A stretch of 64,000 nucleotides of DNA, taken from positions 1,056,001-1,120,000 of the forward strand of contig CBDCFN010000016.1 in the NCBI GenBank assembly GCA_965216315.1, in the 5' to 3' direction. This DNA is from a bacterium. Its GTDB lineage: Bacteria; UBA10199; 2-02-FULL-50-16; JAJFLM01. The translations under genes were made by a program, and so were the position numbers. Within the stretch, counting starts at the first letter, position 1. Every line of letters starts with the position of its first letter. Of this stretch, positions 26,601 through 49,272 are shown one piece after another. Below the pieces are notes generated by a model. That model was not told the origin of the DNA and did no database searches. It saw only the letters and a list, made by a program, of their open reading frames with translations.

Positions 26601-26731
26601 ATGTCAAAGTGCACTGTCGGGTAGGTGGCGCGTTTTAGGTTGAAGAGGGTTAATCCGCCAACGAGCAGAATCATGATCATGACAAGGTTGGCAGTAATCG
26701 GTTTGCGGAGGAAATAGTCAGTGAGTTTCAT
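23687..26731 (-). CDS. RND efflux permease (AcrB family)
   Basis: GIVVDDAIVIGENI, RLRPVILTTITT and two 6-TM halves with large periplasmic loops. Confidence 0.93.
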   Translation of the reverse strand: MKLTDYFLRKPITANLVMIMILLVGGLTLFNLKRATYPTVHFDILKITTTYRGASARDVEVNVTEKIEDELESVNGIEKIKSTSLENISLIYVFVDSDADDMEEVKSDIRRAVDRVTDLPPAVTEKPEVEELRSANVPVLELAVSGAAPERMLRKVSRDLEDAIQTIKGVMSVEKVGYRKREVKIQVDANKLSDNYVSFNEVIRSIKDRNIRVSGGNLESFIAEKKIVTFSEFENPLDVGKVIVRSNFEGDHITLEDIGRIESTYEDYQVKPRTNGETSINLLVRSHGSSDIIDISATIKQLITDFKKTVPKDINISIVSDFSHYTENVLGIVKSNALIGFFLVLLVLVLSLDRYSALWVAAGIPISILGAIIFFPLLDIDINFISLITMIIVIGIVVDDAIVIGENITRHREAGLSGREAALKGVRELVWPVTTTVATTILAFVPMFFMVGITGKFVRQIPVIVILALLLSLLEAITLLPSHIAHSPLRLSKAHDRLLRIQFIYRKVLDFVLKHPKKIAASISIVPALALCLYIFGMKFVLFPYTDIDMFYVVAELDEGTSIEGTTEKIMPVENLIAKIPRTEMVNFTTRIGHHDMDVYGESAGLRENWALIQVFLKPAGERERTSETIMAELDTKIKPIKGFRKLYLEKYYDGPPIGKPITLTFVSDDQEILEKFAQEAFTYLQDVKGVQSLDIDLKPGKEELRLSLDYDEMASVGITVREVASTIRAAYDGVVASDLIREGEEIDFRVQLLPEQRSSTDILLNLKIPNDNGKLIRLASFSKLVPTDGIESIKHYNGRRSITITGDVDTSISTATEINALLRKEFSKKAQSQPGLRMIFGGEEKATQESMQSFLWAFICAMIGIYFLLTILLESFFQPLLIMVSIPVGLAGVIFGFYLHGLPLSFLALVGSLGLIGVIVNDSLVMVTHLNALRGSSKKISRDDLISGSITRLRPVILTTITTVAGLIPTIYGFGGYEPFIVPIVLSLAAGIIVATIGTLLLIPSLYAICYKS

Positions 26732-33328: not shown

Positions 33329-36292
33329 TTACCGAGTCAAGGTGGATACCATGGGTGTGGGGACGGCACCCTGTTCCGCGGTTCTTAATTTGATAACGGG
33401 GTTAAATCCTACCAAGGCTAAGGCTGAGGTGTCATGGACGGGGATGGGTTGAGCTATCTCCAAGTCTTTAGGCGTGAAACTATTGTAAGGAGCTCCTGCC
33501 GTAAAATACCAGTGATCAAATGGATTGTCTGTTTTGACGTACTCAAGCCCTGAATAATCGAGTAACATGTTAGCGGCAGAGCTGCCATCGACTCGCAATA
33601 GAGTCCTAACCCCGCTCACCATAAAGCGGACGGCTTGTTCCGGTCCCATTTCTCCCATGATTGAAAAGGGCGAAAAGTCGAGCATGGGATAGTTGTCAAA
33701 AAAACCGTCAAAATCGTTGGTCGGGATGCGCGCCGGAACCTTAAAGCCGGGAAATCGCCAGACGGCGATCCCTCTCCGTGTATCATCCCCCCAGGGATAA
33801 ATGCGGCGATCATTGCCGCGCATCGCGCGTTTCCATTCATTGAGGTCCGCCGGAAGGACGGTGTAGCCGTATTTTTTGATAAAATCACTGTAGGCATATC
33901 TTAAATAATGGACGGCATGCGCATAGCCGACGCCGGTTACGGCCGCATTTTCGATGAGTGGTCGATCATTCCTGTCTCTTAAAGTTAATGATTGATTAAA
34001 TTGGCCATTCAATAAGGCCATGTGAACATCTTCGTGCCAATGAGCGGGGATTGCATTGGCGAAGGCTGCCAGTGCTTGTTGCCGATTTTTTCGTTTACGC
34101 CGATTAATGAGGCGTCGTGTTGCAATCAAAAACTTTAGATAATCCTTGTTTGTTACCTTTGGCCCAAGCCAGTAATCGTAAGGAACGATTCGCAAATCTT
34201 TCTTGGGGATCTTTTCACTGAAACGACTCCTGAAATCACGGACGGCAACGGGACCAGCGGGAACGACAATGCCATCGAGTGGTAATGATTCACGATGATA
34301 ACGCGGTATTCGCAGAGTATGTGGTGATGAAGAAGGTCGTGCCGGTACGGGAACCCCAATTGGATGATAAAGCGGGTGATCAACCATGAGGTAATGGGAG
34401 TTGCCACGTGGAACTTTAATGATATTCTGAGGGATGCCGCGCGTTGTCTCCTGATAACCTTGCCACTTCAGTACGCCGTGAACATCCTGAGAGTGGCCGA
34501 TGGAAACTGTATAGTTGCTGTCATTGGGGTCCGCACCATCGAAGTCGAGTTGTATGCTGATGCGCCGGCTAAGCATGGGGAGCTGCATGCTCTTGGGTTC
34601 ATATCTCTCCCATTCCCTAATGAGACTCTGCCGTTCGCCTTCATTGCCGCGCATGTCGGCCCATTTAACCAGGTCGGAGATTCGATTGACGATCTCTTGT
34701 AAAATTGCGCCTTTAGGGTAGAGTTTGTAGGCATCCTTATATTCTTGCAGGGCCCTTTGTTGGTGATGTTTCCACTCCAGTTTGTGTTCAGCCGCAAGCT
34801 CCTTGTCAGGTTCTTTTCTTCGGAGGATCTTAAGGTATTCAGTCTCTGCTTGAGCGGCCGCTTGTTCATGGGCACGTGCTTTGTAGGTGCTCAAATCGAC
34901 GAGCAGGGCCTCAGCATTGGGGTAGCGTGCATCAATGTCTCGGGACATCGCCTTAAGCACAATGCGATCAAGTTCTGCCGGAATTTCTCGATCGGGAGAA
35001 ACTTGGCTGGGTCGAGGGGGGTCAATCTGTGACTTATCGAGATATTGACTGATATGATTCTTGCGGTGATCATAGGGGAGCTGGCCTGTGAGTAATTCAA
35101 AGAGTAGGACGCCGAGGGAATAGACGTCGCGCGTGTAATCATCTGGGTGCTGTTCGAGCCAGGCCTCCATGGGCATGTAGGGTGGTGTCCCTTGAACATT
35201 TTTTGTTTTCTGCTGTGATATCTGTTCAATGGTTTGGGCAATGCCGAAATCTCCAAATTTCAAAGAGCGCGCTTCTTTCGAGCGTACCATGAAGAAATTT
35301 TCCGGCTTAATGTCCTTATGGACAATGCCAATCGTGTGTGCTTCGTCAACGGCAGCGGTCGCTTGCAAGGCAAGTGTAATAATCGTTTCAAGGTCGAATT
35401 CAATTTGACCATCATTTATCTCTTCAATATGCTCCATGAGATTACCGTGCATGCGTTCCATGATGATGAACGGTTCGCCGGCTTCACTTTTTCCCGTGTC
35501 ATGGATAACAACGATGCGACGATTTTCATCTTCCATGCGTCCTTGAAGTCGGGCTTCGTTGCGAAAGTATTCCATATGCTCCGCGGCATTCTCTCCGGTC
35601 TTATTGATGACTTTGATCGCAACGAAACGGTCCATTTTGACGTCATATGCTTCATAGACGAGGCCTCCACCGCCTTCTCCAAGCACGTCGGTAAGCTGGT
35701 ATTGAATTTCATCGCGTCCACTGATGCGAAAGGGGATGGGATCCTCACGGGTTGGAATTTCTTGAGACGTGTCATCCGAGCTGATGACAACTTGCTCAGG
35801 TTCAGTGGCTTCAACTTCCGTACGAGTCTTGCCGAAACGAATTCCTTTGCGGGAGCGCAAATGGCCTATTCCGACTAAGGTACTGTGCCGAAGTTGCTGC
35901 CAGGGAGGGCTCCAGAGTTTTGTTTGGCGAAAGAGCCGGTCTAAGGCTTCCTCGGCGGGCTCATTTTGCCGCGGCAGGAGTTCGTACAGATAAAGATCGT
36001 TGAGGAAGGTGTTGAGCGCAATCTGTGTGGCCGGATTCGTGGTGTAGGCCAATAATAAATTGTCGCGTATCATTTCGGCGTTCTTGATCACGTCCTCAGG
36101 CATGTTCATTTCAATGAGACCATTGGTTAGCTGACTCATCGGGGGGACGAGTTGTTGAACGCCGATCGCGTCGTGTGCGGCGCCGAGCGCATGAACTTGC
36201 GTGACAGCTTCAATATAGAGCTGGCTAGCCGTTGTGCCGCTGGATGCCAAGAGAGATGAAGCACCCAAACTCGTGACCGGTGAGAAGAGCAT
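33329..36292 (-). CDS. Ser/Thr protein kinase with a C-terminal divergent FGE-sulfatase-like domain (paralogue)
   Basis: Kinase motifs LGEGGGG, VAIK, HKDIKPEN, DFG and GTPPYM. C-terminus has EWKRAMRGNDRRIYPWGD and DFSPF. Start at ATG 36292 (alternative 36313). Confidence 0.85.
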   Translation of the reverse strand: MLFSPVTSLGASSLLASSGTTASQLYIEAVTQVHALGAAHDAIGVQQLVPPMSQLTNGLIEMNMPEDVIKNAEMIRDNLLLAYTTNPATQIALNTFLNDLYLYELLPRQNEPAEEALDRLFRQTKLWSPPWQQLRHSTLVGIGHLRSRKGIRFGKTRTEVEATEPEQVVISSDDTSQEIPTREDPIPFRISGRDEIQYQLTDVLGEGGGGLVYEAYDVKMDRFVAIKVINKTGENAAEHMEYFRNEARLQGRMEDENRRIVVIHDTGKSEAGEPFIIMERMHGNLMEHIEEINDGQIEFDLETIITLALQATAAVDEAHTIGIVHKDIKPENFFMVRSKEARSLKFGDFGIAQTIEQISQQKTKNVQGTPPYMPMEAWLEQHPDDYTRDVYSLGVLLFELLTGQLPYDHRKNHISQYLDKSQIDPPRPSQVSPDREIPAELDRIVLKAMSRDIDARYPNAEALLVDLSTYKARAHEQAAAQAETEYLKILRRKEPDKELAAEHKLEWKHHQQRALQEYKDAYKLYPKGAILQEIVNRISDLVKWADMRGNEGERQSLIREWERYEPKSMQLPMLSRRISIQLDFDGADPNDSNYTVSIGHSQDVHGVLKWQGYQETTRGIPQNIIKVPRGNSHYLMVDHPLYHPIGVPVPARPSSSPHTLRIPRYHRESLPLDGIVVPAGPVAVRDFRSRFSEKIPKKDLRIVPYDYWLGPKVTNKDYLKFLIATRRLINRRKRKNRQQALAAFANAIPAHWHEDVHMALLNGQFNQSLTLRDRNDRPLIENAAVTGVGYAHAVHYLRYAYSDFIKKYGYTVLPADLNEWKRAMRGNDRRIYPWGDDTRRGIAVWRFPGFKVPARIPTNDFDGFFDNYPMLDFSPFSIMGEMGPEQAVRFMVSGVRTLLRVDGSSAANMLLDYSGLEYVKTDNPFDHWYFTAGAPYNSFTPKDLEIAQPIPVHDTSALALVGFNPVIKLRTAEQGAVPTPMVSTLTR

Positions 36293-36302
36293 CGCTCCTT
36301 TT

Positions 36303-36328
36303 TCGCCAATCATCTTCGATAGTTGTGT
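36303..36328 (-). promoter_or_regulatory. Alternative-sigma promoter-like motif ACACAAC-N15-GCGA
   Basis: Minus strand reads ACACAAC TATCGAAGATGATTG GCGA AAAAGGAGCG ATG. Confidence 0.55.
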
Positions 36329-36370
36329 AATTTTTCAGATAGGAACGAAGGCCGCTAAGTCCCAATAAAC

Positions 36371-36396
36371 ACGCAACAAATTGGCTCAAGAACCGA
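36371..36396 (+). promoter_or_regulatory. Alternative-sigma promoter-like motif ACGCAAC-N15-CCGA
   Basis: ACGCAAC AAATTGGCTCAAGAA CCGA, upstream of the GGAGG SD and GTG 36435. Confidence 0.62.
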
Positions 36397-36434
36397 AGGT
36401 TCAGCTGGGGCGTAGGCTTTGGAGGGAGATAGGA

Positions 36435-38273
36435 GTGAGCCTGGCAGTATCTCAGCTCGGTTTTTCGTCGAGTTTTGTCGGGATGGGTGCAATCTGCGCA
36501 TCTTTGCCGGCGCGCCCGATTAATCTCGGTCGAGTGCCAGCCCTCGATCACTTCATATCCCAGCCCCCCTCTAACGACCAAATTCGACCTAGTTGGAGCA
36601 GCCAACGTTCTACGGGTTCCCGGCATATTCTGGCCGCCGCACCGACGCGGGGTGGCGTGTCAACCGCGACAACCGTGGGTCCCGGCGGGCTCCGTGGCAG
36701 TGGCGGAGGTGGTCCCATTCAGCCAGGACACGTCTTTAAGCTGCCGAGAGGCGGCATGATTGTTTATACCTCTGCAGGGTGGCTTCAGATTGGTGTGCCC
36801 ATGTGGACCAACAAAGATGCGCGTTGGCTCTACGATCTAGCGGATGGCAGTCAGGCGAGTCCGGAGCAAATTCCTCACATCATGCCCACAATCTATATCT
36901 TTGATCTCGATTATGTGCCTGCAACGGACGGGCTTATTCCTGCTGATTTTCTGCAGTATATGAATTTTGTTACGCGAACCGCGCATAACCCGAAAGGAAT
37001 TACCTTTGAAATGATCGCGCCGGATAATGCGACGGCACGTCGGCTGGAAGACTATCTCAACTTAGTTTTCTTAGGCCCCGATGATCCTGATTTGTCCGAG
37101 CGCGTTCGCCAAGAGTATCCTCCGGGCGCGACCGGAGTGCCTGATTTGCTGGCTGAGATGCATCAGGGATTTCCGGCGGCAGCTCCTGACGTATTGCGCC
37201 GGATACACGCTATGGACGCAAACAATGGTTTCGCCACCGGTCAGGTGACTGTGCGCAAGATTGGTTCTCAACTCTATGAGGTGCAGGATGGGACTGATAT
37301 CACTCAGGTGGATCTGGCGCAGGCTCCGATCCGCGGAGTGAACTTAGCTCAAAGCCTTCCCTCATGGGAATCGCCCGCCCATGAAGATGTCTGGAATGGC
37401 GTGGTGAAACAACAGCGTCCAGGCATTTGGCCGATAGGGACGGGCCATGGGTTTACTGCGGATAAAGAAACCAGCGGATTTATTATTTTTAATGGGGGCC
37501 GTGCCTTATTGGTGGATCCACCCTCAAATACAGATGAATTTCTGGTGACCAACCAAATCCCGCTGGCCATGGTGCATGGTGCACTGCTGACGCACGGTCA
37601 TACGGACCATTATGGCAATGCGATTCCCAAGCTGATTTCAATGTTGCCGAGTCTTAAGCTCTACACGACGCCGACTATCTATGACATGTTGCAGGAGCAG
37701 TATGCGTTATCATTAGGCGCCAACTTTTCAGGCGGGCTGGGTCGCTGGACATTCGATCCGATAGCGCCGCAGGAGTTTAAACAGATTATTGGCATGCATT
37801 TTCGGCCCGAGTATACTTTTCATAGCATTCCGACTTTAGGTTTCGATATTTATCGTCGCCCCGTGCAGGATCGCGGTGAGCGTATCGTCATGTTTACAGG
37901 CGATACAAACGCCGATCATGAGCGCATTTTCGATCACACGCAGACGGCTAAGGATGGAACGCCCCCCCTGATGAGCTATGAGCGCGCTCAAAATATTATC
38001 CGCCACGTCGATGGAGTGCTAATGCCCCCCCGGGGTGCACGACCGCCTGTTGTCCTGATCGATAACGGGATTGAGCCCTTACACACGCCCCCGGCGGCGA
38101 CGCAAAAGCTTCTTGTCGAGGCGATTCAGCGTGGTATCGATGTCTCCCGGATACGGGTCTATCATATTGACAGTAAGGAGGCCCGTCGTCATGGCTTGCC
38201 GGAATGGCTGGAAGGGTGGCGCGGCTTTATCGACCTTTCTCAGTATTTTCAGAGGTTTAGAAGCAGCCCCTGA
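36435..38273 (+). CDS. MBL-fold metallohydrolase, putative cyclic-nucleotide phosphodiesterase
   Basis: THGHTDH (HxHxDH), HSIPT and FTGDT. LPRGG..LQIGVP and GHGF..TSGFIIFNGG..VDPP are motifs I recall from PdeD-like MBL phosphodiesterases. Gly/Ser/Pro-rich N-terminal extension. Confidence 0.75.
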   Translation: MSLAVSQLGFSSSFVGMGAICASLPARPINLGRVPALDHFISQPPSNDQIRPSWSSQRSTGSRHILAAAPTRGGVSTATTVGPGGLRGSGGGGPIQPGHVFKLPRGGMIVYTSAGWLQIGVPMWTNKDARWLYDLADGSQASPEQIPHIMPTIYIFDLDYVPATDGLIPADFLQYMNFVTRTAHNPKGITFEMIAPDNATARRLEDYLNLVFLGPDDPDLSERVRQEYPPGATGVPDLLAEMHQGFPAAAPDVLRRIHAMDANNGFATGQVTVRKIGSQLYEVQDGTDITQVDLAQAPIRGVNLAQSLPSWESPAHEDVWNGVVKQQRPGIWPIGTGHGFTADKETSGFIIFNGGRALLVDPPSNTDEFLVTNQIPLAMVHGALLTHGHTDHYGNAIPKLISMLPSLKLYTTPTIYDMLQEQYALSLGANFSGGLGRWTFDPIAPQEFKQIIGMHFRPEYTFHSIPTLGFDIYRRPVQDRGERIVMFTGDTNADHERIFDHTQTAKDGTPPLMSYERAQNIIRHVDGVLMPPRGARPPVVLIDNGIEPLHTPPAATQKLLVEAIQRGIDVSRIRVYHIDSKEARRHGLPEWLEGWRGFIDLSQYFQRFRSSP

Positions 38274-38290
38274 AGTGAAATCTTGAATAA

Positions 38291-38316
38291 AAACAACAAT
38301 TTTGCCCCCCGGCCGA
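38291..38316 (+). promoter_or_regulatory. Alternative-sigma promoter-like motif AAACAAC-N15-CCGA
   Basis: AAACAAC AATTTTGCCCCCCGG CCGA AGAAG, 18 nt before ATG 38335. Confidence 0.6.
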
Positions 38317-38334
38317 AGAAGCGGGGAAGCTGTG

Positions 38335-41300
38335 ATGTTAGGACTCAACGCACAATATAGCCTCACCCAGGCGGGTGTGATGGCCGCTGTTTCTACGGCG
38401 GGTCTACGCCATATCTATGGGATAGCCGGGACGCTTGAGAATAACCTGCGCCTTAATATCCCGATGGAGAGTATTGCCGAAACGTTGGCCCCGCAAGTGG
38501 CTCAGCTTGAATGGGATCAGAAGGGTAAACAGCCGCAGCTCATACACCAAAATCGCATGCTCGAGCGTATTGTCGCCGGCACAGTCTATCCCGATGCCGA
38601 CGGTAGAAAAACCGACGCGCATGTCGTTTTGGGATCCATTTACCATGCGATTGAGCGGATCAATCCGCAGCTCTATCAGGAACTGTCCGGTTTTGCGGGC
38701 AAACTCACTTTGCCGCCGCCATCGATGTCATCTCGACGGAGGACGACAGGACATTATTCAAGCGCCGCGCCACCGGCTGCGACTGTCGTGCCGAAACATC
38801 GTGAAGGCCAAATTGAATGCCTGCATTGTCAGAGTTGGAATCCCGTTAGTAAGAGTTTCTGCGGTGACTGCGGAGAAGACATTTCGGATGATTCTCAATA
38901 TGTGCCGCGGGCGCAAAACATGCGCGGAACAATCTTGTTTACAGACTTTCAAGGATTTACCGATATGAGTCAGTCAATGCCGGCAGAAGTATTGTTCGGG
39001 TGGCTCAATAGACAGTTCAATCTATTGGGAGCCGAGATCATGCGGCAAGGGGGATGGTTCGTTAAAAACATCGGCGATGCGATCATGGTGGTCTTTAATC
39101 AACACGAAGATCATGCCCGGCGTGGAGTCAGTACAGCGGTTCGCATGTTGCAGATTCTTGAGCAGGTCAACCCGCAGCTCAAGGGCATGGGCCTTCCGGC
39201 CTTGCAAATGAGGATTGGCGTGCACACAGGGAATATTGCAGTTGGCTATCTCGGTGGGCCTGGTTCAAAACGAGCGGATGCGATAGGCCGTGCCGTTAAT
39301 TTGGCTTCACGGCTGGAGAGTTTCAAATTGGAAAAGGGAGCTCGAACCATAAATGTTCCTGACGGAAACCGCGTCCTTGTCTCCGGTGCGACCCTGTCAG
39401 AACTAGCCGGAGGCTTTGAACATAGCTTCATTGATAAAGTAGCTTTCAAGGGAGTTGAGCAGCCGGTTGAAGTTTATCACATTCAAGGTGAGTTGCCGGG
39501 GGCCAGTGTCGCCGACCGCTATGCAGGTTCCCAAAGCCAGTTTCGGGGGCGTCGGCGAGAAATGGATCAATTGCAAGCGACCTTTGTTCAAGCGATGCAG
39601 GGACAGCCTCAGTTGGCACTTATCTCCGGCGAGGCGGGCCAGGGAAAGAGTCGACTCGCGCTTGAATTCTTGAATTCAATGAAGGGGCCGCGGGAACGTC
39701 ATATCAAAGTCATAGCCGCACGTGGGGTTGATAGGGATTATCATCCTCCCTATGCCTTGATGAGCGATGCCCTGACGCACTTGGCCGGTATCGAAGCCGA
39801 TGATGAGTTGGAAGAGATTGAGGTCAAAATTCGGAGTCTGGTTTGGTTGTCAAAAGGTCTTGGAGCTGAAGAGCAAGAACAGATGGCGCAGTTGCTGGGA
39901 CGCTTGATGGGGATTCCCTTTCGAACGGAGTTTTCCCCGCAGGAACGGCTGAAGCGCGAGACGATAGAAATGCGCCAAAGAGTCTTCGATAATATTGAAT
40001 CAATGGCTTCAGACCAAAATGTCTTGCGTATGGCAATTCATCGCGCTGTCATTCAATTCTTTCAAGAACATTCCCGCTATTTTTCCCTAATACTTTCTCT
40101 GGAAGATGTGCATTGGTCCGACCAGGAATCATTGGAGCTGTTGCACGAAGTATTCGCATCGCTTGAAGACCGACCGGTAATGGTTGTGGGGACCATGAGG
40201 CCCGAATTTGATACGGGACCCGGTTTTCAGCTCGAAGATATTTTTGCAGGGGATTATAAGGCCGAGCCGATACAGCTCCGTGAGTTATCGATGACGGACA
40301 TGCGCTCCATTGTACAAGACATACTTGGTGAAAGCTCTCAAACGGATCCGGAAGTGGTTAATTACGTCATCTGGCAAGCGGCCGGTAATGTTTTTTTACT
40401 GCATGAAATGGCCCAGGCGGTTAAGGATGGTTGGTTGCAACGCGGAGAGACACCTGAAGAGTGGCGTTTGGTGGGTGCGCATGATGAGCGTCGCACCGTC
40501 GGTGCCGATAATTTTTTACAGACGCGCCTCGAACGATTATCTCCGGCCGAACGCAGTGTCGTTGACTATGCGGCGGTAATTTCCGATGCCTTTGATTTAC
40601 AGTTAATACAAGAATTGGGGATCCCCAATGCGGGCGTTCATTTAGGGCAACTGGTTCAAAAACAGATCCTTCATCAAGACCGACAAGGTAAGTACCGCTT
40701 TCGCCATGATATGATGCGTGCAAAGGCCTATGCGATGATGAGTCATGAAACGCGCCGTGACCTGCATCGCGACATGGCGGAGTTGCTGGTTGAGCATGAA
40801 GTAGAGGACAAAGCTCTTATAGCGTATCATTTGGATAAGGGAGAACAGACGGTAGCGGCGGCCCGCTATTATTTGGATGGCGCCGAACAAGCGCAAGAAC
40901 GCGCACTCTACCGGCAGGCGCTTAGATATTACGATCGTGTCTTTGCCTTGGGTCGCGAAGAAGATAATCAATTGGCTTTGCGGGGTTTGTTGGGGGGGAA
41001 TGAAGTCGCTCTGGATATGCGCGATACCGAATCGGCCTATGCGCGTATCGAATTGGCAGCAGATCTCTTGCAGTCAGGTATTGAACGTGAAGTCAGATCT
41101 CAGTATTTTTATCGCCTCGCCCATACGTTGCAAGTTGACCGTAATGATGAAATCAAAGCGAATTTGTTCGCTGCTGAGCAGGCCGTAAAAAACGCACTAA
41201 AGCGATACGATGACGTCGAAGTATCACCTATGAAAGCGCAATTGTTGGCGACGTTGGGACGGATTTACGCGGAACGCAGGGACTTTCAGGTGGGGCAAAC

Positions 41301-42804
41301 CTATATTCGTCAGGCGATTGTTACGGCCAAAGCGGCTCATGATGATGATGTGGTTGCGGAAACCTATCTCCACCAGATGTATATGGACCTGCAGTATGGA
41401 GACTATGGGTCGGTTATCAAGTTAGGCAATGATGTCGATGCCTTGCTCAAATCCCCTAAGTTTGCCAAGCGCCGGATTGCCCGAAACGTGAATGTAGGAG
41501 GCGCGCACATCAATCTGGGTAATTACGAGGAGGCGCTGCGCATTTATCAAGTGACGGAGACGCTGTCGCGTGAAAAATTTGCAGGGACCTACCTTCCCAA
41601 TATCGTTCCTAACGTCGGGACCTGTTTGCGTCTCCTGGGTCGATCGGAATTGGCGCTCCAACATCTCGATCGTGCGATTGAACTCTTTAGCCACCAACCC
41701 AACGCCTTTATGGCGGGGGTGACGCAACTCTATCGTGCGCTGACTCTCCTCGACCTTAAGCGCTATGACGAGGCCGACGAGGCGGCGACCCGAGTCTATG
41801 CCGTTTCACAGGCGGGGAATGAGCCCGATCCAAAATTAGAGGCGATGGCGCACATGGCTCATGCCCAGATCCAATTAGCTCAAGATCAACTGCAAGCGGC
41901 CGAACAAAGTAGCGCTGAAGCCTATCGATTGTTGTTGGCATCTGAGTGGCATATTGAGGAGTTTGATTTAGAGATTGCGCTGACACATGCGCGCATCCTG
42001 TGGAAGCAGGGTAAGAGCGAGGAGGCGTGGCAGGTCCTTCATGGAACCGAGCAGGTCAAGGGGGCCAGGCAGGAGCTTGTGCTACGGGCAGAGAAACTCG
42101 ACTTGGCGTTGCAGGCGAATTTCTATCATCGGAATCGGGTCAATGCGGCGATCGTTCAGATGTGGGAAGCTATTCAGTTAGAGAGGTTGCGAAGTAATAG
42201 TAACGCTAGCCTGGGGGCTATCGTGCAGGAAGCGCTTACGCGAGTTCAGCCGGGCATGTTGACGCCTGATATTGAGGCTTATGCGCAGCAGGAGCCAGGG
42301 AAGCTGTCGGCGCTGAGAGAAGTCGGTAATCATCAGCTGGTTGGGGTTCTACTTAACTCACCATATATAGTCACGCTGGGAACAGTACTATCAAGGAAAT
42401 TAGAAGAGATGGGGGCTGCAGAAACGATGGAAGCCGGACTTTCATTGACCCGTGCCGTGTGGCGCCCTTCGTTTAATGAAGATGGCAGGCCCATTGTTTA
42501 TTGGGATTTTGATCTTGATTCCGACAATGTGCAGATCTTAAGTGCTTTAAACACCATTGGAAATGTTAGGCGTCACATTCATGCGACGTATGAAGGAGAT
42601 GTGAGCTACAGTGATGGAGTCATTAAAGTTACCTTCAACTTAACGCAAGAAACGGAGACCTTCACGACGGACCAATTTGGAGCTATCGAGTTACTCATTG
42701 GCGCGACCACCGATGGGCGCTCCGTTTTGGCGCTGCGCGCTGAAAAGGGTGCCTTTACAGCGCGACCGGATATCTTACTCCAGGACTTAGCCGAAGGTCT
42801 CTAA
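38335..42804 (+). CDS. Zn-ribbon / class III adenylate cyclase / P-loop NTPase / TPR protein
   Basis: Zn ribbon CLHC..FCGDCG. Cyclase motifs FTDFQGFT, KNIGDA, RIGVHTG and DAIGRAVNLASRLE. Walker A GEAGQGKS and Walker B LEDVHW. TPR region. Start set to ATG 38335. Confidence 0.9.
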   Translation: MLGLNAQYSLTQAGVMAAVSTAGLRHIYGIAGTLENNLRLNIPMESIAETLAPQVAQLEWDQKGKQPQLIHQNRMLERIVAGTVYPDADGRKTDAHVVLGSIYHAIERINPQLYQELSGFAGKLTLPPPSMSSRRRTTGHYSSAAPPAATVVPKHREGQIECLHCQSWNPVSKSFCGDCGEDISDDSQYVPRAQNMRGTILFTDFQGFTDMSQSMPAEVLFGWLNRQFNLLGAEIMRQGGWFVKNIGDAIMVVFNQHEDHARRGVSTAVRMLQILEQVNPQLKGMGLPALQMRIGVHTGNIAVGYLGGPGSKRADAIGRAVNLASRLESFKLEKGARTINVPDGNRVLVSGATLSELAGGFEHSFIDKVAFKGVEQPVEVYHIQGELPGASVADRYAGSQSQFRGRRREMDQLQATFVQAMQGQPQLALISGEAGQGKSRLALEFLNSMKGPRERHIKVIAARGVDRDYHPPYALMSDALTHLAGIEADDELEEIEVKIRSLVWLSKGLGAEEQEQMAQLLGRLMGIPFRTEFSPQERLKRETIEMRQRVFDNIESMASDQNVLRMAIHRAVIQFFQEHSRYFSLILSLEDVHWSDQESLELLHEVFASLEDRPVMVVGTMRPEFDTGPGFQLEDIFAGDYKAEPIQLRELSMTDMRSIVQDILGESSQTDPEVVNYVIWQAAGNVFLLHEMAQAVKDGWLQRGETPEEWRLVGAHDERRTVGADNFLQTRLERLSPAERSVVDYAAVISDAFDLQLIQELGIPNAGVHLGQLVQKQILHQDRQGKYRFRHDMMRAKAYAMMSHETRRDLHRDMAELLVEHEVEDKALIAYHLDKGEQTVAAARYYLDGAEQAQERALYRQALRYYDRVFALGREEDNQLALRGLLGGNEVALDMRDTESAYARIELAADLLQSGIEREVRSQYFYRLAHTLQVDRNDEIKANLFAAEQAVKNALKRYDDVEVSPMKAQLLATLGRIYAERRDFQVGQTYIRQAIVTAKAAHDDDVVAETYLHQMYMDLQYGDYGSVIKLGNDVDALLKSPKFAKRRIARNVNVGGAHINLGNYEEALRIYQVTETLSREKFAGTYLPNIVPNVGTCLRLLGRSELALQHLDRAIELFSHQPNAFMAGVTQLYRALTLLDLKRYDEADEAATRVYAVSQAGNEPDPKLEAMAHMAHAQIQLAQDQLQAAEQSSAEAYRLLLASEWHIEEFDLEIALTHARILWKQGKSEEAWQVLHGTEQVKGARQELVLRAEKLDLALQANFYHRNRVNAAIVQMWEAIQLERLRSNSNASLGAIVQEALTRVQPGMLTPDIEAYAQQEPGKLSALREVGNHQLVGVLLNSPYIVTLGTVLSRKLEEMGAAETMEAGLSLTRAVWRPSFNEDGRPIVYWDFDLDSDNVQILSALNTIGNVRRHIHATYEGDVSYSDGVIKVTFNLTQETETFTTDQFGAIELLIGATTDGRSVLALRAEKGAFTARPDILLQDLAEGL

Positions 42805-44177
42805 TTTACCGTAAAGATCAGTGAAGCTGTTCCTCCCGTGATAGTACTCATCGTTATTAAGTATTGCTGTCCCACACTTAAGGCAGGGGATGGGTTGGAA
42901 GCCGCGCCAAACGGGACGGCATCGGCAATGTTGTAGTTCCCATAAGTCACGGGTGATTGCAGTGGAATCAGATTGTCATTTTCATCCTGGCCACTCACGA
43001 TGCCATAAATCGTGCTCCCAGTACCGGCAGTTGATACCAGGAGGGTTGCCGCTTGCCCGAAAGGCCAGCTGATCGTCGGAAAGCTGCCGCTACCGGACAA
43101 CTGGATGTCGGCATCCGCGCCGTTTGATCCAATCGTGCCATCGATATTGCTGAAGCCGTCGATACTGAAGGAACCGGATCCGGTATTGTCATCATCTTCG
43201 GTTGCATCGTCCAACTCGTCTAGGGAATGCATGACGACGGATTGAAAATTAGACCCTTCCGAGATAGTTACATTTTCCATGACGCCGCGGATGTAGCCGT
43301 CTTGAAAGACGACAAAGTCCCAAAGTCCGACAGGGACGTTACTAAAATTATTGTCTCCGGCGGCTCCCATGTAGATCGGGCTTAAGTTGGTGCTCTGACT
43401 CTTGACTAGGTTCGAAGTATTATCCTTCTTGGCACCGACCAGGTGACTATTTTTCTTAATGTCGATTAAATTGCCGACAGCATCCTTCATCTCGACCAGG
43501 ATGCGCCCGGTTTTGCTTAGGGCAGACTTAATAAAGCCGGTGCCTTCATTATTCTCGGCTATGAAGATGCTCAAATCCAGCCTATGCTCGTCGAATTCCT
43601 TTTTCATGGTTCCGGAGTTTTCATTCCAGGCTTCAGCCGGGCTCTTCCCGGAATCAATTGATTTTTGAATGCCGTCTTCAATCCTTTTGACGCGCGCTTT
43701 GGTGTTAAGTCCAAAATTAAGCAGTGGCAGTGCCATTGCGGTCAGGATAGCGGCGGCCCCGAGGATCTGAAGCACAATTCCGGCCTGCAAATCCGGGGAG
43801 TCTTCGTCGAGTGTGAAGGCGACCGTGCCGCCATTGGTCGTGATAAAGTTGACCAGGGCGGTTTCATCGGCCTGAAGTTGTTGTAGGTCAGCGAGGGCCT
43901 CATCGAGCTGGGGAACAGCCTTATCCTTAAAGTAATTGAGTACCTTGTTGCCGGAATTTTCATCGAAGACGGTGATATCGCCAAATTCATCATTGATTTT
44001 GTCAAAGTCGCTGATGAGTTCACTGATCGTATTTGTTAATTGTTCCGAGGAGTCGTTTTGGCTGGATGCCGTTGATTGACCTGTGTTGCCACCACCGCCG
44101 CCGCAGCCAATGAAACTCATGCTCACGACGAGAGACGGGACTAGAATATTCCGGATTAGAAAGGACTTGATGGACAT
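42801..44177 (-). CDS. Hypothetical lipoprotein
   Basis: Signal ending in FIG-C then GGGGG; helical N-half with an internal hydrophobic segment; beta-rich C-half. Confidence 0.72.
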   Translation of the reverse strand: MSIKSFLIRNILVPSLVVSMSFIGCGGGGGNTGQSTASSQNDSSEQLTNTISELISDFDKINDEFGDITVFDENSGNKVLNYFKDKAVPQLDEALADLQQLQADETALVNFITTNGGTVAFTLDEDSPDLQAGIVLQILGAAAILTAMALPLLNFGLNTKARVKRIEDGIQKSIDSGKSPAEAWNENSGTMKKEFDEHRLDLSIFIAENNEGTGFIKSALSKTGRILVEMKDAVGNLIDIKKNSHLVGAKKDNTSNLVKSQSTNLSPIYMGAAGDNNFSNVPVGLWDFVVFQDGYIRGVMENVTISEGSNFQSVVMHSLDELDDATEDDDNTGSGSFSIDGFSNIDGTIGSNGADADIQLSGSGSFPTISWPFGQAATLLVSTAGTGSTIYGIVSGQDENDNLIPLQSPVTYGNYNIADAVPFGAASNPSPALSVGQQYLITMSTITGGTASLIFTVN

Positions 44178-44238
44178 CACGAAACCCCCTTTTCTTTGCT
44201 TTCTAGCCCTAAATAGCTTAAATTTCCATCACTTATTC

Positions 44239-44730
44239 ATGATTATCGAAAATTCTTCAGCGAAGCGGAATAGATCCTTCATTTTTAGTATCCTGGCCTT
44301 GGCGGTTGTCGGGGGGGTTGCCGCCCTCTGGCTTCGCAATCCCCAATTATTTCCAGCTAAATCGGCGGTTGCGCCGAGTGGTGATCAGCTTGAGTTAGAT
44401 GAGCGTTGTGCGATGTATCGGGTTTCCATTGAAAAAAAGATCGGAGAGCAGCGCTTTTATGCCAAGCGCGCCAGGACGAGTGCCAATTATACTTTGAAAC
44501 GAATTTTTTATAGCCCGCGCACGCAATCGTGTCTCTATGTGGCGATGACAACCGTTTTTAAGTCGGCGGAGATTGAAGCGATTATTCTTAATCTTGCCAA
44601 TGCTTCCGATCATGAGACGATTCATAGTGCTTGGCTCTATTGGGGCACGGACGAATTTGCGGCCGAGAAAGGTCGCTTCGAGCATGTCGTTGCTCAGTAT
44701 CAACGGGTTGAAGTGACGGAGGCGCCGTAA
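44239..44730 (+). CDS. Hypothetical membrane-anchored protein
   Basis: ATG 44239; N-terminal TM helix FIFSILALAVVGGVAALW; Cys pair (ERC..IFYSPRTQSCLY). Confidence 0.6.
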   Translation: MIIENSSAKRNRSFIFSILALAVVGGVAALWLRNPQLFPAKSAVAPSGDQLELDERCAMYRVSIEKKIGEQRFYAKRARTSANYTLKRIFYSPRTQSCLYVAMTTVFKSAEIEAIILNLANASDHETIHSAWLYWGTDEFAAEKGRFEHVVAQYQRVEVTEAP

Positions 44731-44745
44731 GCGTGCTTTATGCGA

Positions 44746-44775
44746 TTGACATGTCTCCAGACCAAGCCTTAGAAT
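44746..44775 (+). promoter_or_regulatory. Sigma70-type promoter of the nfeD-SPFH operon
   Basis: TTGACA-N18-TAGAAT followed by a GGAGG SD. Confidence 0.7.
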
Positions 44776-44799
44776 TACGTTCCTGTTGGGAGGACTGAG

Positions 44800-45261
44800 A
44801 TGGATTCTTTAAATTTTTGGACGCAGCCGCCTTTGCTTTGGTTCCTCATCGGTTTGGTTTTGATGCTTATCGAATTCGTGAGTGCCGGGGTTGTCATCCT
44901 TTTTTTTGGGGTGGGCGCATGGATTGTCGCGTTAATCACGTTGCTTGTTCCGGTCTCTTTAACCGGACAGCTGATTATTTTTCTCCTTACCTCCGTCTTA
45001 ATGCTGGTTACCTTGCGTAAATGGTTGAAAGGGATGCTAAGCGGTAAATTATCGTGGTTTAGAGGGAGGGAGGGCGAAATAGAAGAGTTTGTTGGTAAAC
45101 GCGCCACGGTTGAAGCGGCCATTTCGCCTCATGTCCGTGGTAAAGTGTCTTTTCATGGGAGCCTATGGGACGCCCAATCAGATGTCGACATTAAGGCAGG
45201 GTCCACTGTCGAAATTGTCGCCAGCGATAGCATTACCTTAATAGTAAAGCCAATATCATAA
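44800..45261 (+). CDS. NfeD family membrane protein
   Basis: TM helices plus an OB-fold tail GKVSFHGSLWDAQS; adjacent to an SPFH gene. Confidence 0.9.
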   Translation: MDSLNFWTQPPLLWFLIGLVLMLIEFVSAGVVILFFGVGAWIVALITLLVPVSLTGQLIIFLLTSVLMLVTLRKWLKGMLSGKLSWFRGREGEIEEFVGKRATVEAAISPHVRGKVSFHGSLWDAQSDVDIKAGSTVEIVASDSITLIVKPIS

Positions 45262-45272
45262 GAGAGGATTTA

Positions 45273-46232
45273 ATGATGATCTTAAATATCATGCTCATTG
45301 GGCTGGTCATATTTGCCTTAGTCACTTTTTATAAAACGATCCGGGTGGTTCCGCAGAAAACCGCATTCATTATCGAGCGGTTGGGAAAGTACAGTAATAC
45401 ACTGACGGCAGGGCTTCATATACTGGTCCCTTTTATTGATAAGGTATCCTATAAGCATACGCTAAAAGAGCAGGCCCTCGATGTGCCCTCACAGATTTGT
45501 ATCACTAGGGATAATATTGCCGTAGAGGTCGATGGAATTATTTATCTGCAGGTTATTGATGCGGCAAAAGCATCTTATGGAATAACGAATTACCAGTTTG
45601 CTTCAACTCAGCTCGCGCAAACAACGATGCGTAGTATTATTGGTAAGCTAGACCTCGATAAAACCTTTGAAGAACGCGAAACGATTAACGGAGCTATTGT
45701 TGAGGCAGTCGATAAGGCGTCTGAGCCTTGGGGTGTCAAGGTCACTCGTTATGAGGTTAAAAATATTATTCCTCCGCAGAGCATCAAAGATGCAATGGAA
45801 AAACAGATGCGTGCTGAGCGTGAGAAGCGGGCCGTCATCGCCGAATCAGAAGGTGATAAGCAGGCCAAGATCAATCGGGCCCAAGGTGAAAAACAGGAGA
45901 CGATCTCTGTTTCCGAAGGTGAGATGCAGCGCCGCATCAATGAAGCGGAAGGGCGTGCCCAGGAGATTGAGCGCGTGGCGAATGCGACCGCCAAGGGAAT
46001 TAGAGAAGTTGCTCTGGCCATCAATGATGAGGGTGGGCTTGATGCCGTTAATATGCGGATCGCGGAGCAATATCTCGATGAATTCGGGAACTTGGCGCGC
46101 ACGAATAATACGCTCATTATTCCTTCCAATGTTTCTGATATTGCCGGAATGGTCGCTTCGGCGATGACGGTGATCAAGGGCGAGAGTAATGGGAAGGGTA
46201 AGGTCCGCGGCAAGGTGAAAGTCGCTGAGTAA
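45273..46232 (+). CDS. SPFH/stomatin-like (QmcA/paraslipin) protein
   Basis: IIERLGKY, ITRDN, AQTTMRS and QMRAEREKRA motifs. Confidence 0.93.
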   Translation: MMILNIMLIGLVIFALVTFYKTIRVVPQKTAFIIERLGKYSNTLTAGLHILVPFIDKVSYKHTLKEQALDVPSQICITRDNIAVEVDGIIYLQVIDAAKASYGITNYQFASTQLAQTTMRSIIGKLDLDKTFEERETINGAIVEAVDKASEPWGVKVTRYEVKNIIPPQSIKDAMEKQMRAEREKRAVIAESEGDKQAKINRAQGEKQETISVSEGEMQRRINEAEGRAQEIERVANATAKGIREVALAINDEGGLDAVNMRIAEQYLDEFGNLARTNNTLIIPSNVSDIAGMVASAMTVIKGESNGKGKVRGKVKVAE

Positions 46233-46233
46233 A

Positions 46234-46758
46234 ATGAAAACGACCATCTTTACAGTATTGTTATTAGTTCTATCATCGGGGGCGCAGGCCCGGACGGTTT
46301 CGCCGGAGAAAAGTCCGTCAAAAAAGCCGCCTTTGGAGGTGTTTATTCCATCCGGTTGGCAGATGGAGGCGCCGTGGTCAATAGAGTATTCCTATTCCGC
46401 GAAAGCAGCCCTGCTGGCCCCCGGGGCGGATCCGAATGTCCAGTGTCGCGTCAAGTTCCGGGAGGAAACGACTCCGGAATTTCGGCAAAGTAACTACCAA
46501 GCAAGGATTCTGAACGAAGTGCGAACTTCTCGTAGTAACTTCAATGTCTTAAATCAGTCAGCGTTTCCCATTGAAGGTCGCGAAGCAACGCGCGTGACAG
46601 CATCCTGGAATGAGGGTGGCCGACTTGTAAAAGGGGTTTTTTATTTCCTCTCCAAGGCGCAACGCAAAGTTGTCATGGAATGTGTCGGTCCCTCTAAGGA
46701 TCATGAGCGGCTCGTATCCGGTTTCGATCAAATCGCGCAACGGCTCAAAATTCATTAG
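46234..46758 (+). CDS. Secreted hypothetical protein (PsbP/DcrB-like)
   Basis: Signal peptide AQA|R; IPSGW, IEGREA and FDQIAQRLKI pattern. Confidence 0.55.
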   Translation: MKTTIFTVLLLVLSSGAQARTVSPEKSPSKKPPLEVFIPSGWQMEAPWSIEYSYSAKAALLAPGADPNVQCRVKFREETTPEFRQSNYQARILNEVRTSRSNFNVLNQSAFPIEGREATRVTASWNEGGRLVKGVFYFLSKAQRKVVMECVGPSKDHERLVSGFDQIAQRLKIH

Positions 46759-46792
46759 CCAAAAGTCACCACGACATTATAAAGAGTCCTTA

Positions 46793-47125
46793 ATGGACAA
46801 GACGCAGGCTCCTAAAAACATCGCTGTCGCCAAGGGCCCGCCGGGACTCATGATTGAATGGGAAGATGGATTGAAAAGGAAGATTCCTTTTATCACGCTT
46901 CGCAAAGAGTGTCCCTGCGCCGAATGTCGGGGGGAAAGAACGCCATTGGATCTGGCTCCGGATGAGTTGCCGACGGCACGACCCCTGAGCGATAAAGCGG
47001 CAATTTGCCAGAATATGTATAAAATCGGGGGATATGCTGTCGGTTTTGTCTGGGGGGACGGTCATGACAGCGGCATCTACAGCTGGGAGTATTTAAGAGC
47101 GCTTGCGGAGGGTATTGATGACTGA
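46793..47125 (+). CDS. DUF971 / gamma-butyrobetaine hydroxylase-like N-terminal domain protein
   Basis: LRKECPCAEC, IGGYA and WGDGHDSGIYSWEYL motifs. Confidence 0.88.
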   Translation: MDKTQAPKNIAVAKGPPGLMIEWEDGLKRKIPFITLRKECPCAECRGERTPLDLAPDELPTARPLSDKAAICQNMYKIGGYAVGFVWGDGHDSGIYSWEYLRALAEGIDD

Positions 47126-47561
47126 GCAGCCCGCCCGCGGCACTGTCCAGACCGTTTGTGAAGTTCGCTTCTCTGATACGGATGCCATGGGGCACGTCAA
47201 TAATGCCCGGTTTTTTAGCTACATGGAGCAGGCGCGGGTGGCCTATATCGCCCGCCTCATGCTGGATGTAGATTATAAAGAGGGTGTTCGCTCTTTCCCT
47301 TTTATTCTAGCCGATATCCAGTGTGCCTTTAAATCTCCTTTGTATGTAGGTGAAGTTGTGACGGTTTTTATTTCCGTTGCCTCAATTGGGACCAAGAGCT
47401 TTGTCTTCGAGTATTCCCTGATGGAGCAGGGATCCGGTCGGTTGGTAGCGACGGGTCGGAGTGTCCAGGTTCTCTATGATTACAAGCAGGAAGCGAGTTA
47501 CCCCATGCCGGACGAGATGAGGCGCAGTATTGAGGCCTTGGAGGGGCGCTCCTTCGCGTAA
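47118..47561 (+). CDS. Acyl-CoA thioesterase (4HBT/YbgC family)
   Basis: VRFSDTDAMGHVNNARF; GGAGG SD before ATG 47118. Confidence 0.9.
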   Translation: MTEQPARGTVQTVCEVRFSDTDAMGHVNNARFFSYMEQARVAYIARLMLDVDYKEGVRSFPFILADIQCAFKSPLYVGEVVTVFISVASIGTKSFVFEYSLMEQGSGRLVATGRSVQVLYDYKQEASYPMPDEMRRSIEALEGRSFA

Positions 47562-47565
47562 TTCT

Positions 47566-47591
47566 ACGCAACTTCTATTATGAGGGCCCGA
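47566..47591 (+). promoter_or_regulatory. Alternative-sigma promoter-like motif ACGCAAC-N15-CCGA
   Basis: ACGCAAC TTCTATTATGAGGGC CCGA TGAGCGTAT ATG, with no SD. Confidence 0.65.
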
Positions 47592-47600
47592 TGAGCGTAT

Positions 47601-49229
47601 ATGGGGTTCGGGTTTGCACTTACATCGACGCATACTCCGACGGCGGCACTAGCTGCCGCGGGTGTAACTTTCAACCGAGCGACTTTCTTTGATGATGTGC
47701 TCCAAACTCAAGGGCTACGCCAAGTCTACCCCATTCGCGACCCTGCAGTTATTACGGAAGCCTTTGCTGCCTATCAAGGGAGTGACGCAGATCTCTTCAG
47801 TTTAGCGGGGACCGAACAAAGTCTCGATGTTGACAGCGGCACTGTTCCACTAACCTATTTGGATAGCACGGCTTCGACCAAGATGATTCCCCACGTGGAG
47901 GCGGCCGAAGCCAATGCCAATCGACATTACGCCAACAGCCATTCGGTTGCTCACAATCCTGCCATGATCTCTACTATCGATTTTAAGAATGCTCATCGCC
48001 GCGCACTTGATTTTGTGGGGGCTAATCCAACCACGCATGTTGCAGTTTTTGATGGCTCTGGTGCAACAGGTCCACTCAATCGAGTGGCAAGAAACCTTTT
48101 TGTCCATGGACGTGATGAAAAAAGGAACACAGTTCTCTTTACGGGCAAAGAGCATCATGCCAACCAGTTACCTTGGCAACGTTATGCCGGTAAGCTGCAT
48201 TGTCATGGTATTCCCGTAGATGGCGTTACAGGTTGTGTTGATATACCTGCCTATCGTCAGTTGCTTCAAGATCATAGTGAACGACTTCGTTTGGTCGCGG
48301 TCAATGGAGTGTCTAATGTGACCGGTGTGGTAGAGCCGGAATTGGAGCTGATGGCTCATTTGGCCCATGAGGTGGGTGCTCTGTTGTTGGTAGATTATGC
48401 TCAGGGCTTGGCTCATAGGGCGATCAGTATGCAAGAGCTGGGTATCGATTTTCTGGTTGCCTCAGGACATAAGACCTATGCACCCGGATCACCCGGCCTT
48501 CTAGTAATGCCACGAGACAGCACACCTCAGTATCCCGACAACGTGGGCGGTGGCATTGTTGAGTCCGTCGATATTGATGATTTTCAACTAAGCAGTAAAT
48601 TGCCCGATCGGGAAGAAGCAGGAACGCCAGATATTATCGGTGGAATTAAGTTTGCGGCGGCATTGGAGGCGCTAGCTTGGGTCGGTATGGATCGAGTTTG
48701 GCAGCACGAGTTGGAATTGACAGAGCAATTGGTGTCAGGATTGATGGCAATATCAGGCGTTGAGGTTTATGGTGATACAGATTTGGCCAGAACACCGCGT
48801 GCCGGTGTAGTAACATTCAATATTGATGGTCTCCATCATGCGATTCTGAGTCAGGCCTTATCGGATTATTTTAATATTGCAACCCGGAATGAGTGCTTTT
48901 GTGCTCAGCCGTATGTGAAATCGCTCTTTCATATGACGCCGGATCAATTGCGACGATTTAAGCACCAGCTTGCAGAGGGTGATCGGAGTAAGGCTCCCGG
49001 GATGGTAAGAGCCAGCTTGGGTATTTACAATACAACCAATGACATCCATCGATTGTTGGTAGCCGTGGCATGGATTAGCGCGAATAAGGATCGTTTGGTT
49101 CAGGAATACTATGTCGATACTAATGGCAATGCCTATCGTCATGACAAATGGCGGGTTGATGCCAATAGGTACAGTTCATTACCCTCTAGCAATGGTGACT
49201 CCCTTTATTTCCCATCGGTCGACAGCTGA
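47601..49229 (+). CDS. Cysteine desulfurase-like class V PLP enzyme (SufS-type) with an N-terminal extension
   Basis: YLDSTAST, EHHAN, SNVTG, VDYAQ, ASGHK (PLP lysine), EAGTP and RNECFCAQP motifs. Confidence 0.88.
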   Translation: MGFGFALTSTHTPTAALAAAGVTFNRATFFDDVLQTQGLRQVYPIRDPAVITEAFAAYQGSDADLFSLAGTEQSLDVDSGTVPLTYLDSTASTKMIPHVEAAEANANRHYANSHSVAHNPAMISTIDFKNAHRRALDFVGANPTTHVAVFDGSGATGPLNRVARNLFVHGRDEKRNTVLFTGKEHHANQLPWQRYAGKLHCHGIPVDGVTGCVDIPAYRQLLQDHSERLRLVAVNGVSNVTGVVEPELELMAHLAHEVGALLLVDYAQGLAHRAISMQELGIDFLVASGHKTYAPGSPGLLVMPRDSTPQYPDNVGGGIVESVDIDDFQLSSKLPDREEAGTPDIIGGIKFAAALEALAWVGMDRVWQHELELTEQLVSGLMAISGVEVYGDTDLARTPRAGVVTFNIDGLHHAILSQALSDYFNIATRNECFCAQPYVKSLFHMTPDQLRRFKHQLAEGDRSKAPGMVRASLGIYNTTNDIHRLLVAVAWISANKDRLVQEYYVDTNGNAYRHDKWRVDANRYSSLPSSNGDSLYFPSVDS

Positions 49230-49246
49230 ATCTGCATAGACCCCAG

Positions 49247-49272
49247 ACGCAACTTTTAGACCTAGCGGCCGA
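49247..49272 (+). promoter_or_regulatory. Alternative-sigma promoter-like motif ACGCAAC-N15-CCGA
   Basis: ACGCAAC TTTTAGACCTAGCGG CCGA AAAG, 13 nt before ATG 49286. Confidence 0.65.

Follow-up and report, generated by a model that had tools for sequence, protein, structure and literature searches.

A sigma-28-type promoter motif with a changed -35 box, and its candidate sigma factor at a type III secretion locus, in a UBA10199 bacterium

We analyzed a 64,000-nucleotide stretch of a UBA10199 genome (contig CBDCFN010000016.1 of assembly GCA_965216315.1, positions 1,056,001 to 1,120,000; the window hereafter), in which a promoter-like motif, CAAC-N15-SCGA, recurs ahead of genes. This motif very probably marks a set of promoters read by a FliA/WhiG-type sigma factor encoded in a type III secretion (T3SS) locus, which would transcribe the secretion locus and a scattered regulon of cargo genes. 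Judged from sequence, promoter and sigma factor are a variant of the sigma-28 kind and not flagellar FliA, from which they differ in -35 box, helix, family cut-off, and gene context.

The motif in the window and the genome

An earlier note on this DNA listed five CAAC-N15-SCGA sites, intergenic and 9 to 38 nt ahead of a start codon, and a TAAC variant. All six were found again, each in the sense orientation of the next gene. These candidate promoters, with one possible addition, are given below with their scores under a position weight matrix.

36300..36328, minus strand: promoter, N15 class (ACACAAC...GGCGAAAA), 19.9 bits
36371..36399, plus strand: promoter, N15 class, 14.7 bits
38291..38319, plus strand: promoter, N15 class, 18.4 bits
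47566..47594, plus strand: promoter, N15 class, 21.6 bits
49247..49275, plus strand: promoter, N15 class, top-scoring site of the window, 25.5 bits
4555..4583, minus strand: variant promoter (TAAC), 77 nt ahead of ATG 4480 of a 105-aa open reading frame (ORF; 4163-4480) without the N-terminal tag described below, 14.6 bits
26926..26954, minus strand: possible additional weaker site, ~195 nt upstream of an RND transporter gene (23687-26731), 12.4 bits

The range of 9 to 38 nt is borne out, with distances from CCGA to the start of 10 nt (ATG 36292), 38 nt (GTG 36435, preceded by a Shine-Dalgarno-like GGAG run), 15/18 nt (GTG 38332/ATG 38335), 9 nt (ATG 47601), and 13 nt (ATG 49286). The intergenic status of the sites holds if these downstream starts are real, but three sites fall within ORFs if the upstream-most starts of the ORF finder (36313, 36381, and 38302) are the real ones. 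The spacers, described as unrelated, do share only 1 to 7 of 15 positions pairwise, except that their first four positions tend to T, which is part of the motif. The divergent promoters at 36328 and 36371 stand back to back, with -35 ends merely 42 bp apart. Of 10 CAAC-N15-SCGA matches in the window, five lie inside ORFs; the raw count is not unusual, with 10 matches also at spacing 11 and 9 at spacing 9, and what is nonrandom is the position of the motif, which occurs in 5 of 33 upstream regions versus a mean of 0.06 (maximum 2) in 2,000 doublet shuffles.

The same spacing dominates the 2.96-Mb genome, in which ACGCAAC-Nx-CCGA occurs 15 times at spacing 15, 8 times at 16, 4 times at 17, and 0 to 3 times at others (spacings 8 to 25). 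Intergenic, sense-oriented CAAC-Nx-SCGA matches no more than 150 nt from a start number 129 at spacing 15; 24, 20, and 10 at spacings 16, 17, and 18; and 2 to 6 at 11 to 14, 19, and 20. A genome-wide search of intergenic regions, as the earlier note had proposed, yielded 277 gene-linked sites of at least 13 bits (the site threshold) with an iterated weight matrix built on the genome and our own simple gene calls: 218 N15, 32 N16, 26 N17, and 1 N14. Matches are biased toward the sense strand (150 versus 60 antisense, the latter coming partly from divergent pairs).

The matrix consensus, cgCAACtttt-N10-gcCGAtaa, has the right box g-C-C-G-A-T-A-A and reaches beyond the motif first noted, to a -10 element GCCGATAA and a TTT after the -35 box. 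In Escherichia coli, the sigma-28 consensus is TAAAGTTT-n11-GCCGATAA (excerpt of PMC2859248). Written as GCAACTTT-n11-GCCGATAA, the motif is this consensus with three -35 bases changed, all within the first five, so that GCAAC stands where sigma-28 has TAAAG; the sigma-28 geometry that had been suggested is thus confirmed. The arrangement of two 8-bp boxes around an 11-bp gap is found in 218 of 277 sites, and a minority are longer by +1 or +2. At 285 sites, the interval 9 to 13 nt past CCGA holds 81 in-frame ATGs, compared to 11 other ATGs, a peak that fits a predicted transcription start ~10 nt past CCGA. By sigma-28 geometry, such genes, three of them in the window (ATGs 36292, 47601, and 49286), would have near-leaderless mRNAs with a leader of 0 to 4 nt.

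The candidate sigma factor

Five sigma-70-family proteins are encoded in the genome: RpoD, an RpoH-like protein, two extracytoplasmic function (ECF) sigma factors, and one FliA/WhiG-like sigma factor. The gene for the last (G000:C16:350583-351410) lies outside the window, between sctJ and a sctL-sctN-sctQ-sctRST run. SctV, J, L, N, Q, R, S, T, and U are all present in the genome, several with scores below cut-offs and SctU elsewhere (C16:805005), while the small proteins of the T3SS locus match no family and may include a divergent needle. The sole strong secretin of the genome belongs to a type II secretion locus. No match to the flagellin, rod, or FlgM families was found in this 98% complete genome, and none to a type VI secretion sheath or a Flp pilin.

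A divergent FliA/WhiG-like sigma factor had been proposed as one possible reader, and the sigma-28 -10 box and geometry, together with the presence of one such factor, support it. Its closest solved relatives include FliA and WhiG. Residues R74, A78, D81, R84, and R91 (regions 2.4/3.0), which we take to be -10 readers, are identical to those of Salmonella FliA, whereas the region 4.2 helix, presumably the -35 reader, is SKSWTSRLH versus GESRVSQLH in FliA (E218K, R220W, V221T, and Q223R in Salmonella FliA numbering). This helix is altered alike across the sigma family (of 142 representatives, 133 have W220 and 137 have R223). A sigma factor and its promoter would be expected to pair in this way, with the -10 readers and the -10 box both kept and the helix and the -35 box both altered. 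Regions 2.4/3.0 would read GCCGATAA and the altered helix GCAAC instead of TAAAG, and the new -35 specificity would separate this programme from flagellar FliA, which is present as well in some relatives.

Flagellar sequences are distinct from this sigma factor in phylogeny and context. Nine FliA/SigD rows formed a 100/100 clade excluding the SKSW sigma in a midpoint-rooted tree, and a second, canonical FliA lies in a flhA-flhF operon at all seven such loci fetched from flagellated relatives. The flagellar FliA of the phylum (L057 to L063) carries S or Q instead of A78. Extra SKSW-type paralogues occur outside T3SS loci (L055 on G080:C2, L056 on G078:C241, and L064 on G083:C5); region 2-3 residues are altered in two of them, and the G083 copy has a frameshift-like split.

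Motif and sigma factor were followed across 87 phylum genomes of at least 80% completeness. RCAAC-N15-SCGATAA is present in all 87 (8 to 89 copies versus 0 to 5 for the reversed pattern), and the canonical TAAAG version is near background (0 to 14 versus 0 to 5 in the control). The T3SS-locus sigma factor is likewise present in 87/87 genomes and adjoins SctJ/K/L/N in 46/46 related loci (47 fetched, less one partial distant match); SctV gave matches in 64/65. Flagellin was detected in 10/87 genomes, and 19 flagellin-family upstream regions of flagellated relatives had neither the motif nor a clear TAAAG-type promoter. TAAAG counts were highest or joint second in G081 and G077 (14 and 9) but not in other flagellated genomes. 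An ECF-type region 4 match is absent (E 1e-8) from 23/87 genomes. In five of these that were checked, the number of sigma-70 proteins is three in three genomes and two in another, the fifth shows a fourth, weak match, and the motif is kept in every one. In G001, G008, and G013, the family consists of an RpoD-sized protein, an RpoH-sized protein, and the T3SS-locus sigma factor only, while G072 has only two members; these four genomes carry 39, 30, 28, and 59 exact motif sites, respectively.

Distant metagenomic loci were sampled with a profile from 36 distant representatives, and the best 80 of 590 loci were taken. All 80 have an S(K/R)SW helix in the sigma factor. The 78 with enough flank reduced to 67 nonredundant loci (sigma 33 to 45% identical, GC 48 to 75%), and in 19 of the 67, the motif was found in an interval that opens 70 bp ahead of the sigma stop codon and closes 90 bp past it, compared to 0.44 in 300 shuffles. 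The opposite strand and six alternative spacings gave 0 motifs in this interval. The gene behind the motif encodes 98 to 162 aa wherever a full ORF was found, with the ATG 9 to 10 nt past CCGA in 11 of the 19 loci. One motif-bearing sigma factor clusters with proteins labeled Polyangia and two representatives with Acidobacteriota. A word-index homologue search with the sigma factor returned only close relatives.

The spacer classes differ in the genes that they precede. Of 48 sense matches at the T3SS loci of relatives, 41 are N17, mostly ahead of two small conserved genes upstream of the sigma gene; since these sites precede genes leading into the sigma gene, they would allow autoregulation. 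The N17 pattern occurs in 51/51 genomes, above control in most, not all. Promoters with a 17-bp spacer would act on genes of the T3SS locus, among them the run into the sigma gene, and on other envelope genes, and those with a 15-bp spacer would drive the large cargo class, often through near-leaderless mRNAs. If the cargo is in turn routed through the T3SS, a weaker claim held at slightly less than even weight, one sigma factor would switch on the secretion machine together with what it secretes, as a programme for contact with a host or prey.

Several points weigh against a T3SS-locus sigma factor as the reader. Its best family is TIGR02479, but at 133 bits it falls below the 189.6 cut-off. 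Neither sctD nor sctU nor the sigma gene has a site of its own directly upstream; a double spacing of 15 and 17 is unusual for one sigma factor, and a co-factor may be needed. Only 36 of the 80 distant loci have a T3SS neighbor (27/39 at loci of at least 4 kb), and 48/67 have no site by the strict pattern. Motif and sigma factor are both universal in a phylum whose members, as kin, are not independent, so their co-occurrence there cannot separate the T3SS-locus sigma factor from RpoD.

It is quite improbable that RpoD or RpoH, with changed specificity, reads the motif. RpoD is retained in all five reduced genomes checked, and presence or absence is therefore not discriminating, but its region 2.4 and 4.2 sequences are canonical and the genome has a separate TTGAC-17-TAnnnT class (33 of 1,010 unit heads at spacing 17 versus 2 to 11 elsewhere). 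The motif is found at 0/37 tRNA/tmRNA upstream regions (a strict sigma-70 scan at tRNA loci found just 2/37) and is missing from the housekeeping copies of phosphofructokinase (PFK), glutamate dehydrogenase, malic enzyme, biotin carboxylase, and SufS. For RpoH, none was found in G072 (97% complete). A bipartite transcription factor site is very improbable: the start sites are predicted ones, but the motif is asymmetric and strand specific, its right box is identical to the sigma-28 -10 box, and ATGs accumulate where a sigma-28-type promoter would initiate. An ECF promoter, the other option of the earlier note, has an AAC-N16-CG geometry typical of ECF promoters, which the 16-bp gap here matches, and two ECF genes to read it; this is nonetheless extremely improbable, because ECF-free genomes keep 28 to 59 exact sites (four of the five checked further have no additional sigma factor), neither ECF gene has a site upstream, and the -10 box is the full sigma-28 octamer.

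An N-terminal tag on the putative cargo proteins

Some 80 to 115 proteins, five in the window, begin with a tag of 11 to 27 uncharged residues that is rich in S/T/A/L and often ends in (L/V/A)-L-A-(S/A)-(S/G/A/T), roughly LLA(S/A)S. Residues 2 to 21 contain no D, E, K, or R in 66/105 near-leaderless proteins versus 65/1,942 others. A promoter-independent tag rule, written after the promoter-linked proteins had been viewed, picks 82 of 2,307 genes, of which 67 lie directly behind a promoter (6 more are operonic) compared to 218 of 2,225 untagged genes. A looser tag score picks 117, and the tag then follows 84/222 N15, 2/29 N16, and 0/29 N17 promoters. Tag codons vary synonymously and freely, and an RNA-level role was rejected on that ground. 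The window genes behind the sites, and one operonic neighbor, are as follows.

33329..36292, minus strand: Ser/Thr kinase gene (Pfam Pkinase), near-leaderless (10 nt), tag MLFSPVTSLGASSLLASS
30391..33324, minus strand: second Ser/Thr kinase gene, 4 nt behind the first and without its own promoter, tag MLMNTAQLFQTSALLAAS
36435..38273, plus strand: metallo-beta-lactamase-fold protein (weak Pfam Lactamase_B), GTG start 38 nt past CCGA, uncharged tag-like N terminus (tag score 10.1)
38335..42804, plus strand: adenylate/guanylate cyclase-AAA-TPR protein, uncharged tag-like N terminus
47601..49229, plus strand: class V aminotransferase (SufS-like), near-leaderless (9 nt), tag MGFGFALTSTHTPTAALAAA
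49286..50092, plus strand: cysteine-dioxygenase-like cupin (Pfam CDO_I) with a long N-terminal extension, near-leaderless (13 nt), tag MLALSTNVLALAPALLATT

Conservation in relatives was seen for two of these genes. Kinase-homologue loci keep the N15 site in 8 of 9 examined, with 6 of them 9 to 12 nt before the ATG, and low-charge starts occur there in other families too. The SufS-like gene is a divergent extra copy beside two untagged paralogues in the genome; its orthologues in G023 and G024 keep promoter (with a diverged spacer), short leader, and tag, and the promoter was not found at the orthologue in G049. For the cupin, a word-index homologue search among proteins of similar length returned only itself.

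A Pfam scan (E 1e-6) covering 73 of 111 tagged proteins left 56 without a match. Matched proteins include PFK, diacylglycerol kinase, a type I fatty acid synthase-like protein, a multidomain acetyl coenzyme A (acetyl-CoA) carboxylase, glutamate dehydrogenase, malic enzyme, a macro domain, and a helicase. The tagged PFK, carboxylase, dehydrogenase, malic enzyme, and SufS share 24 to 35% identity with further copies in this genome that have neither tag nor promoter, and the tagged acetyl-CoA carboxylase was matched in just 1 of 86 other genomes (E 1e-90). Kinase or lipoprotein enrichment in the regulon was not detected by simple patterns, of which the kinase pattern is too narrow. Tagged giant lipid synthesis genes stand among other tagged genes at G000:C16:1626042-1641915 and C15:370007-387967, encoding a 2,588-aa acetyl-CoA carboxylase (ACC_central and biotin-ligase domains) and a 3,854-aa fatty acid synthase-like protein; in G060, a homologue of this carboxylase likewise follows the promoter and begins without charged residues. 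At G000:C16:2159180-2199359, ~15 consecutive genes each have their own strong N15 promoter (many of 23 to 27 bits) and no tag, and several are paralogous with an MGC(D/E)LYGAS-type start.

Orphans, kinases, and spare cytosolic enzymes, bearing a non-Sec peptide under a T3SS-housed sigma factor, suggest that the tag may route cargo through the T3SS as an export signal for delivery to another cell, an idea to which we give slightly less than even weight. About as likely, and likewise tentative, is that the promoter reading holds while the tag either feeds type II secretion as an atypical Sec-type signal or directs proteins to a compartment inside the cell or a structure of resting cells. Its LLA(S/A)S end looks like a signal peptidase site, the genome has a type II secretion locus, four LamG-domain proteins (a fold usually extracellular) have tag-like starts, and the tagged lipid synthesis enzymes could serve the cell itself. 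In the LamG-domain paralogue cluster (G000:C16:444170-456124; L165), the tag-like starts run into or replace lipoprotein signals. Set against a Sec-type signal, the tag lacks a basic n-region and a strongly hydrophobic h-region (peak hydropathy of 1.49 versus 2.67 for 88 lipoprotein signals), the cargo includes ATP-, NAD-, and CoA-dependent cytosolic enzymes, and in four proteins the tag precedes a second signal of lipobox or RR type.

Delivery through the T3SS has its own difficulties. The post hoc tag rule overstates the significance of the link between tag and promoter, a clear LLA(S/A)S core is confined to the family of this genome (G023 and G024), and the small substrate-like proteins of the T3SS locus have no tag. 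The tag is linked to the T3SS only indirectly, through composition and promoter, and the genome also has type II secretion. An ESM Atlas search with a tagged N terminus gave a best score of 0.88 and no family.

Related systems and implications

With the FliA promoters of E. coli and Salmonella, as described in excerpts of PMC2859248, the present system shares the octamer of the -10 element, the TTT behind the -35 box, the 11-bp gap, and the region 2.4/3.0 residues. It differs in GCAAC for TAAAG, the SKSWTSRLH helix, the lack of flagellum and FlgM, the ~280 sites, and the second, 17-bp spacing class. A closer parallel in scale is Bdellovibrio bacteriovorus HD100, in which TTAAG-N16-CCGATA, attributed to FliA, lies at 92 of 140 attack-phase promoters (excerpt of PMC3627812). 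In both cases a sigma-28-type promoter appears to have grown into a global lifestyle programme with many nonflagellar, uncharacterized genes, but Bdellovibrio uses its flagellar FliA and a near-canonical -35 box, whereas here a separate paralogue is tied to a nonflagellar T3SS (PMC3627812).

The secretion system itself resembles those of Myxococcales, whose nonflagellar T3SS has no dedicated secretin (excerpt of PMC3459982); here, too, the only strong secretin is outside the T3SS locus, in the type II locus. The needleless T3SS* of Myxococcus xanthus (mxan_2434-2464) is needed for prey lysis, with effectors only proposed (excerpt of PMC12075869). Like the present system it has an export apparatus and a sorting platform, and it has neither a dedicated secretin nor a recognizable needle, which may hold here too (PMC3459982 and PMC12075869). 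The passages of these two sources that we drew on do not mention a sigma factor or promoter. Our literature search found no description of this promoter and nothing joining UBA10199 with type III secretion, in a retrieval that missed key papers on sigma-28 structure and mutagenesis and on T3SS*. The Kil/Tad partner of T3SS* was not found here, as no Flp pilin was matched. The M. xanthus T3SS cluster presumably holds a FliA/WhiG gene.

Dedicated control of a T3SS has a precedent in HrpL, which governs the T3SS and effectors of plant pathogens through a different box. Like the sigma factor proposed here, it co-regulates a T3SS and scattered cargo genes, but it is an ECF sigma factor. Chlamydial sigma-28 similarly works without flagella, but it keeps the TAAAG box and has a very small regulon, unlike the GCAAC box and large regulon of the present case.

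The broadest reading, which we regard as rather doubtful, is that a sigma-28 paralogue with a rewired helix, whose range runs from an uncultured phylum as far as Myxococcota, acts as the dedicated regulator of a secretin-less T3SS, and that its promoter marks the substrates, in the family of this genome >100 tagged proteins translated for the most part from near-leaderless mRNAs and delivered into a host or prey. If so, the delivered kinases, cyclase, and second metabolic enzyme set (acetyl-CoA carboxylase, fatty acid synthase-like protein, PFK, malic enzyme, glutamate dehydrogenase, and a cysteine desulfurase-like protein) would reprogramme the recipient's metabolism, the tag would be a simple candidate consensus for an export signal, and the motif would offer a direct way to list effectors of the needleless T3SS in predatory myxobacteria. 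Such predators, for which T3SS substrates have only been proposed (excerpt of PMC12075869), could be searched with the motif, given that it and this kind of sigma factor both extend to Myxococcota. The analysis also supplies a promoter, a candidate sigma factor, and a gene list for a putative lifestyle programme spanning over a tenth of the genes, and a natural example in which sigma-28 -35 specificity has apparently shifted with few helix residues. We know of no cultured model for the phylum.

Sigma-54-type elements also appeared in the scans. A TGGYA-N7-TGC pattern occurs at 84 of 1,010 unit heads not linked to the motif, a count without a control, and the window encodes a 1,511-aa kinase-AAA-TPR-GAF-sigma-54 activator fusion (11711-16246, minus strand).

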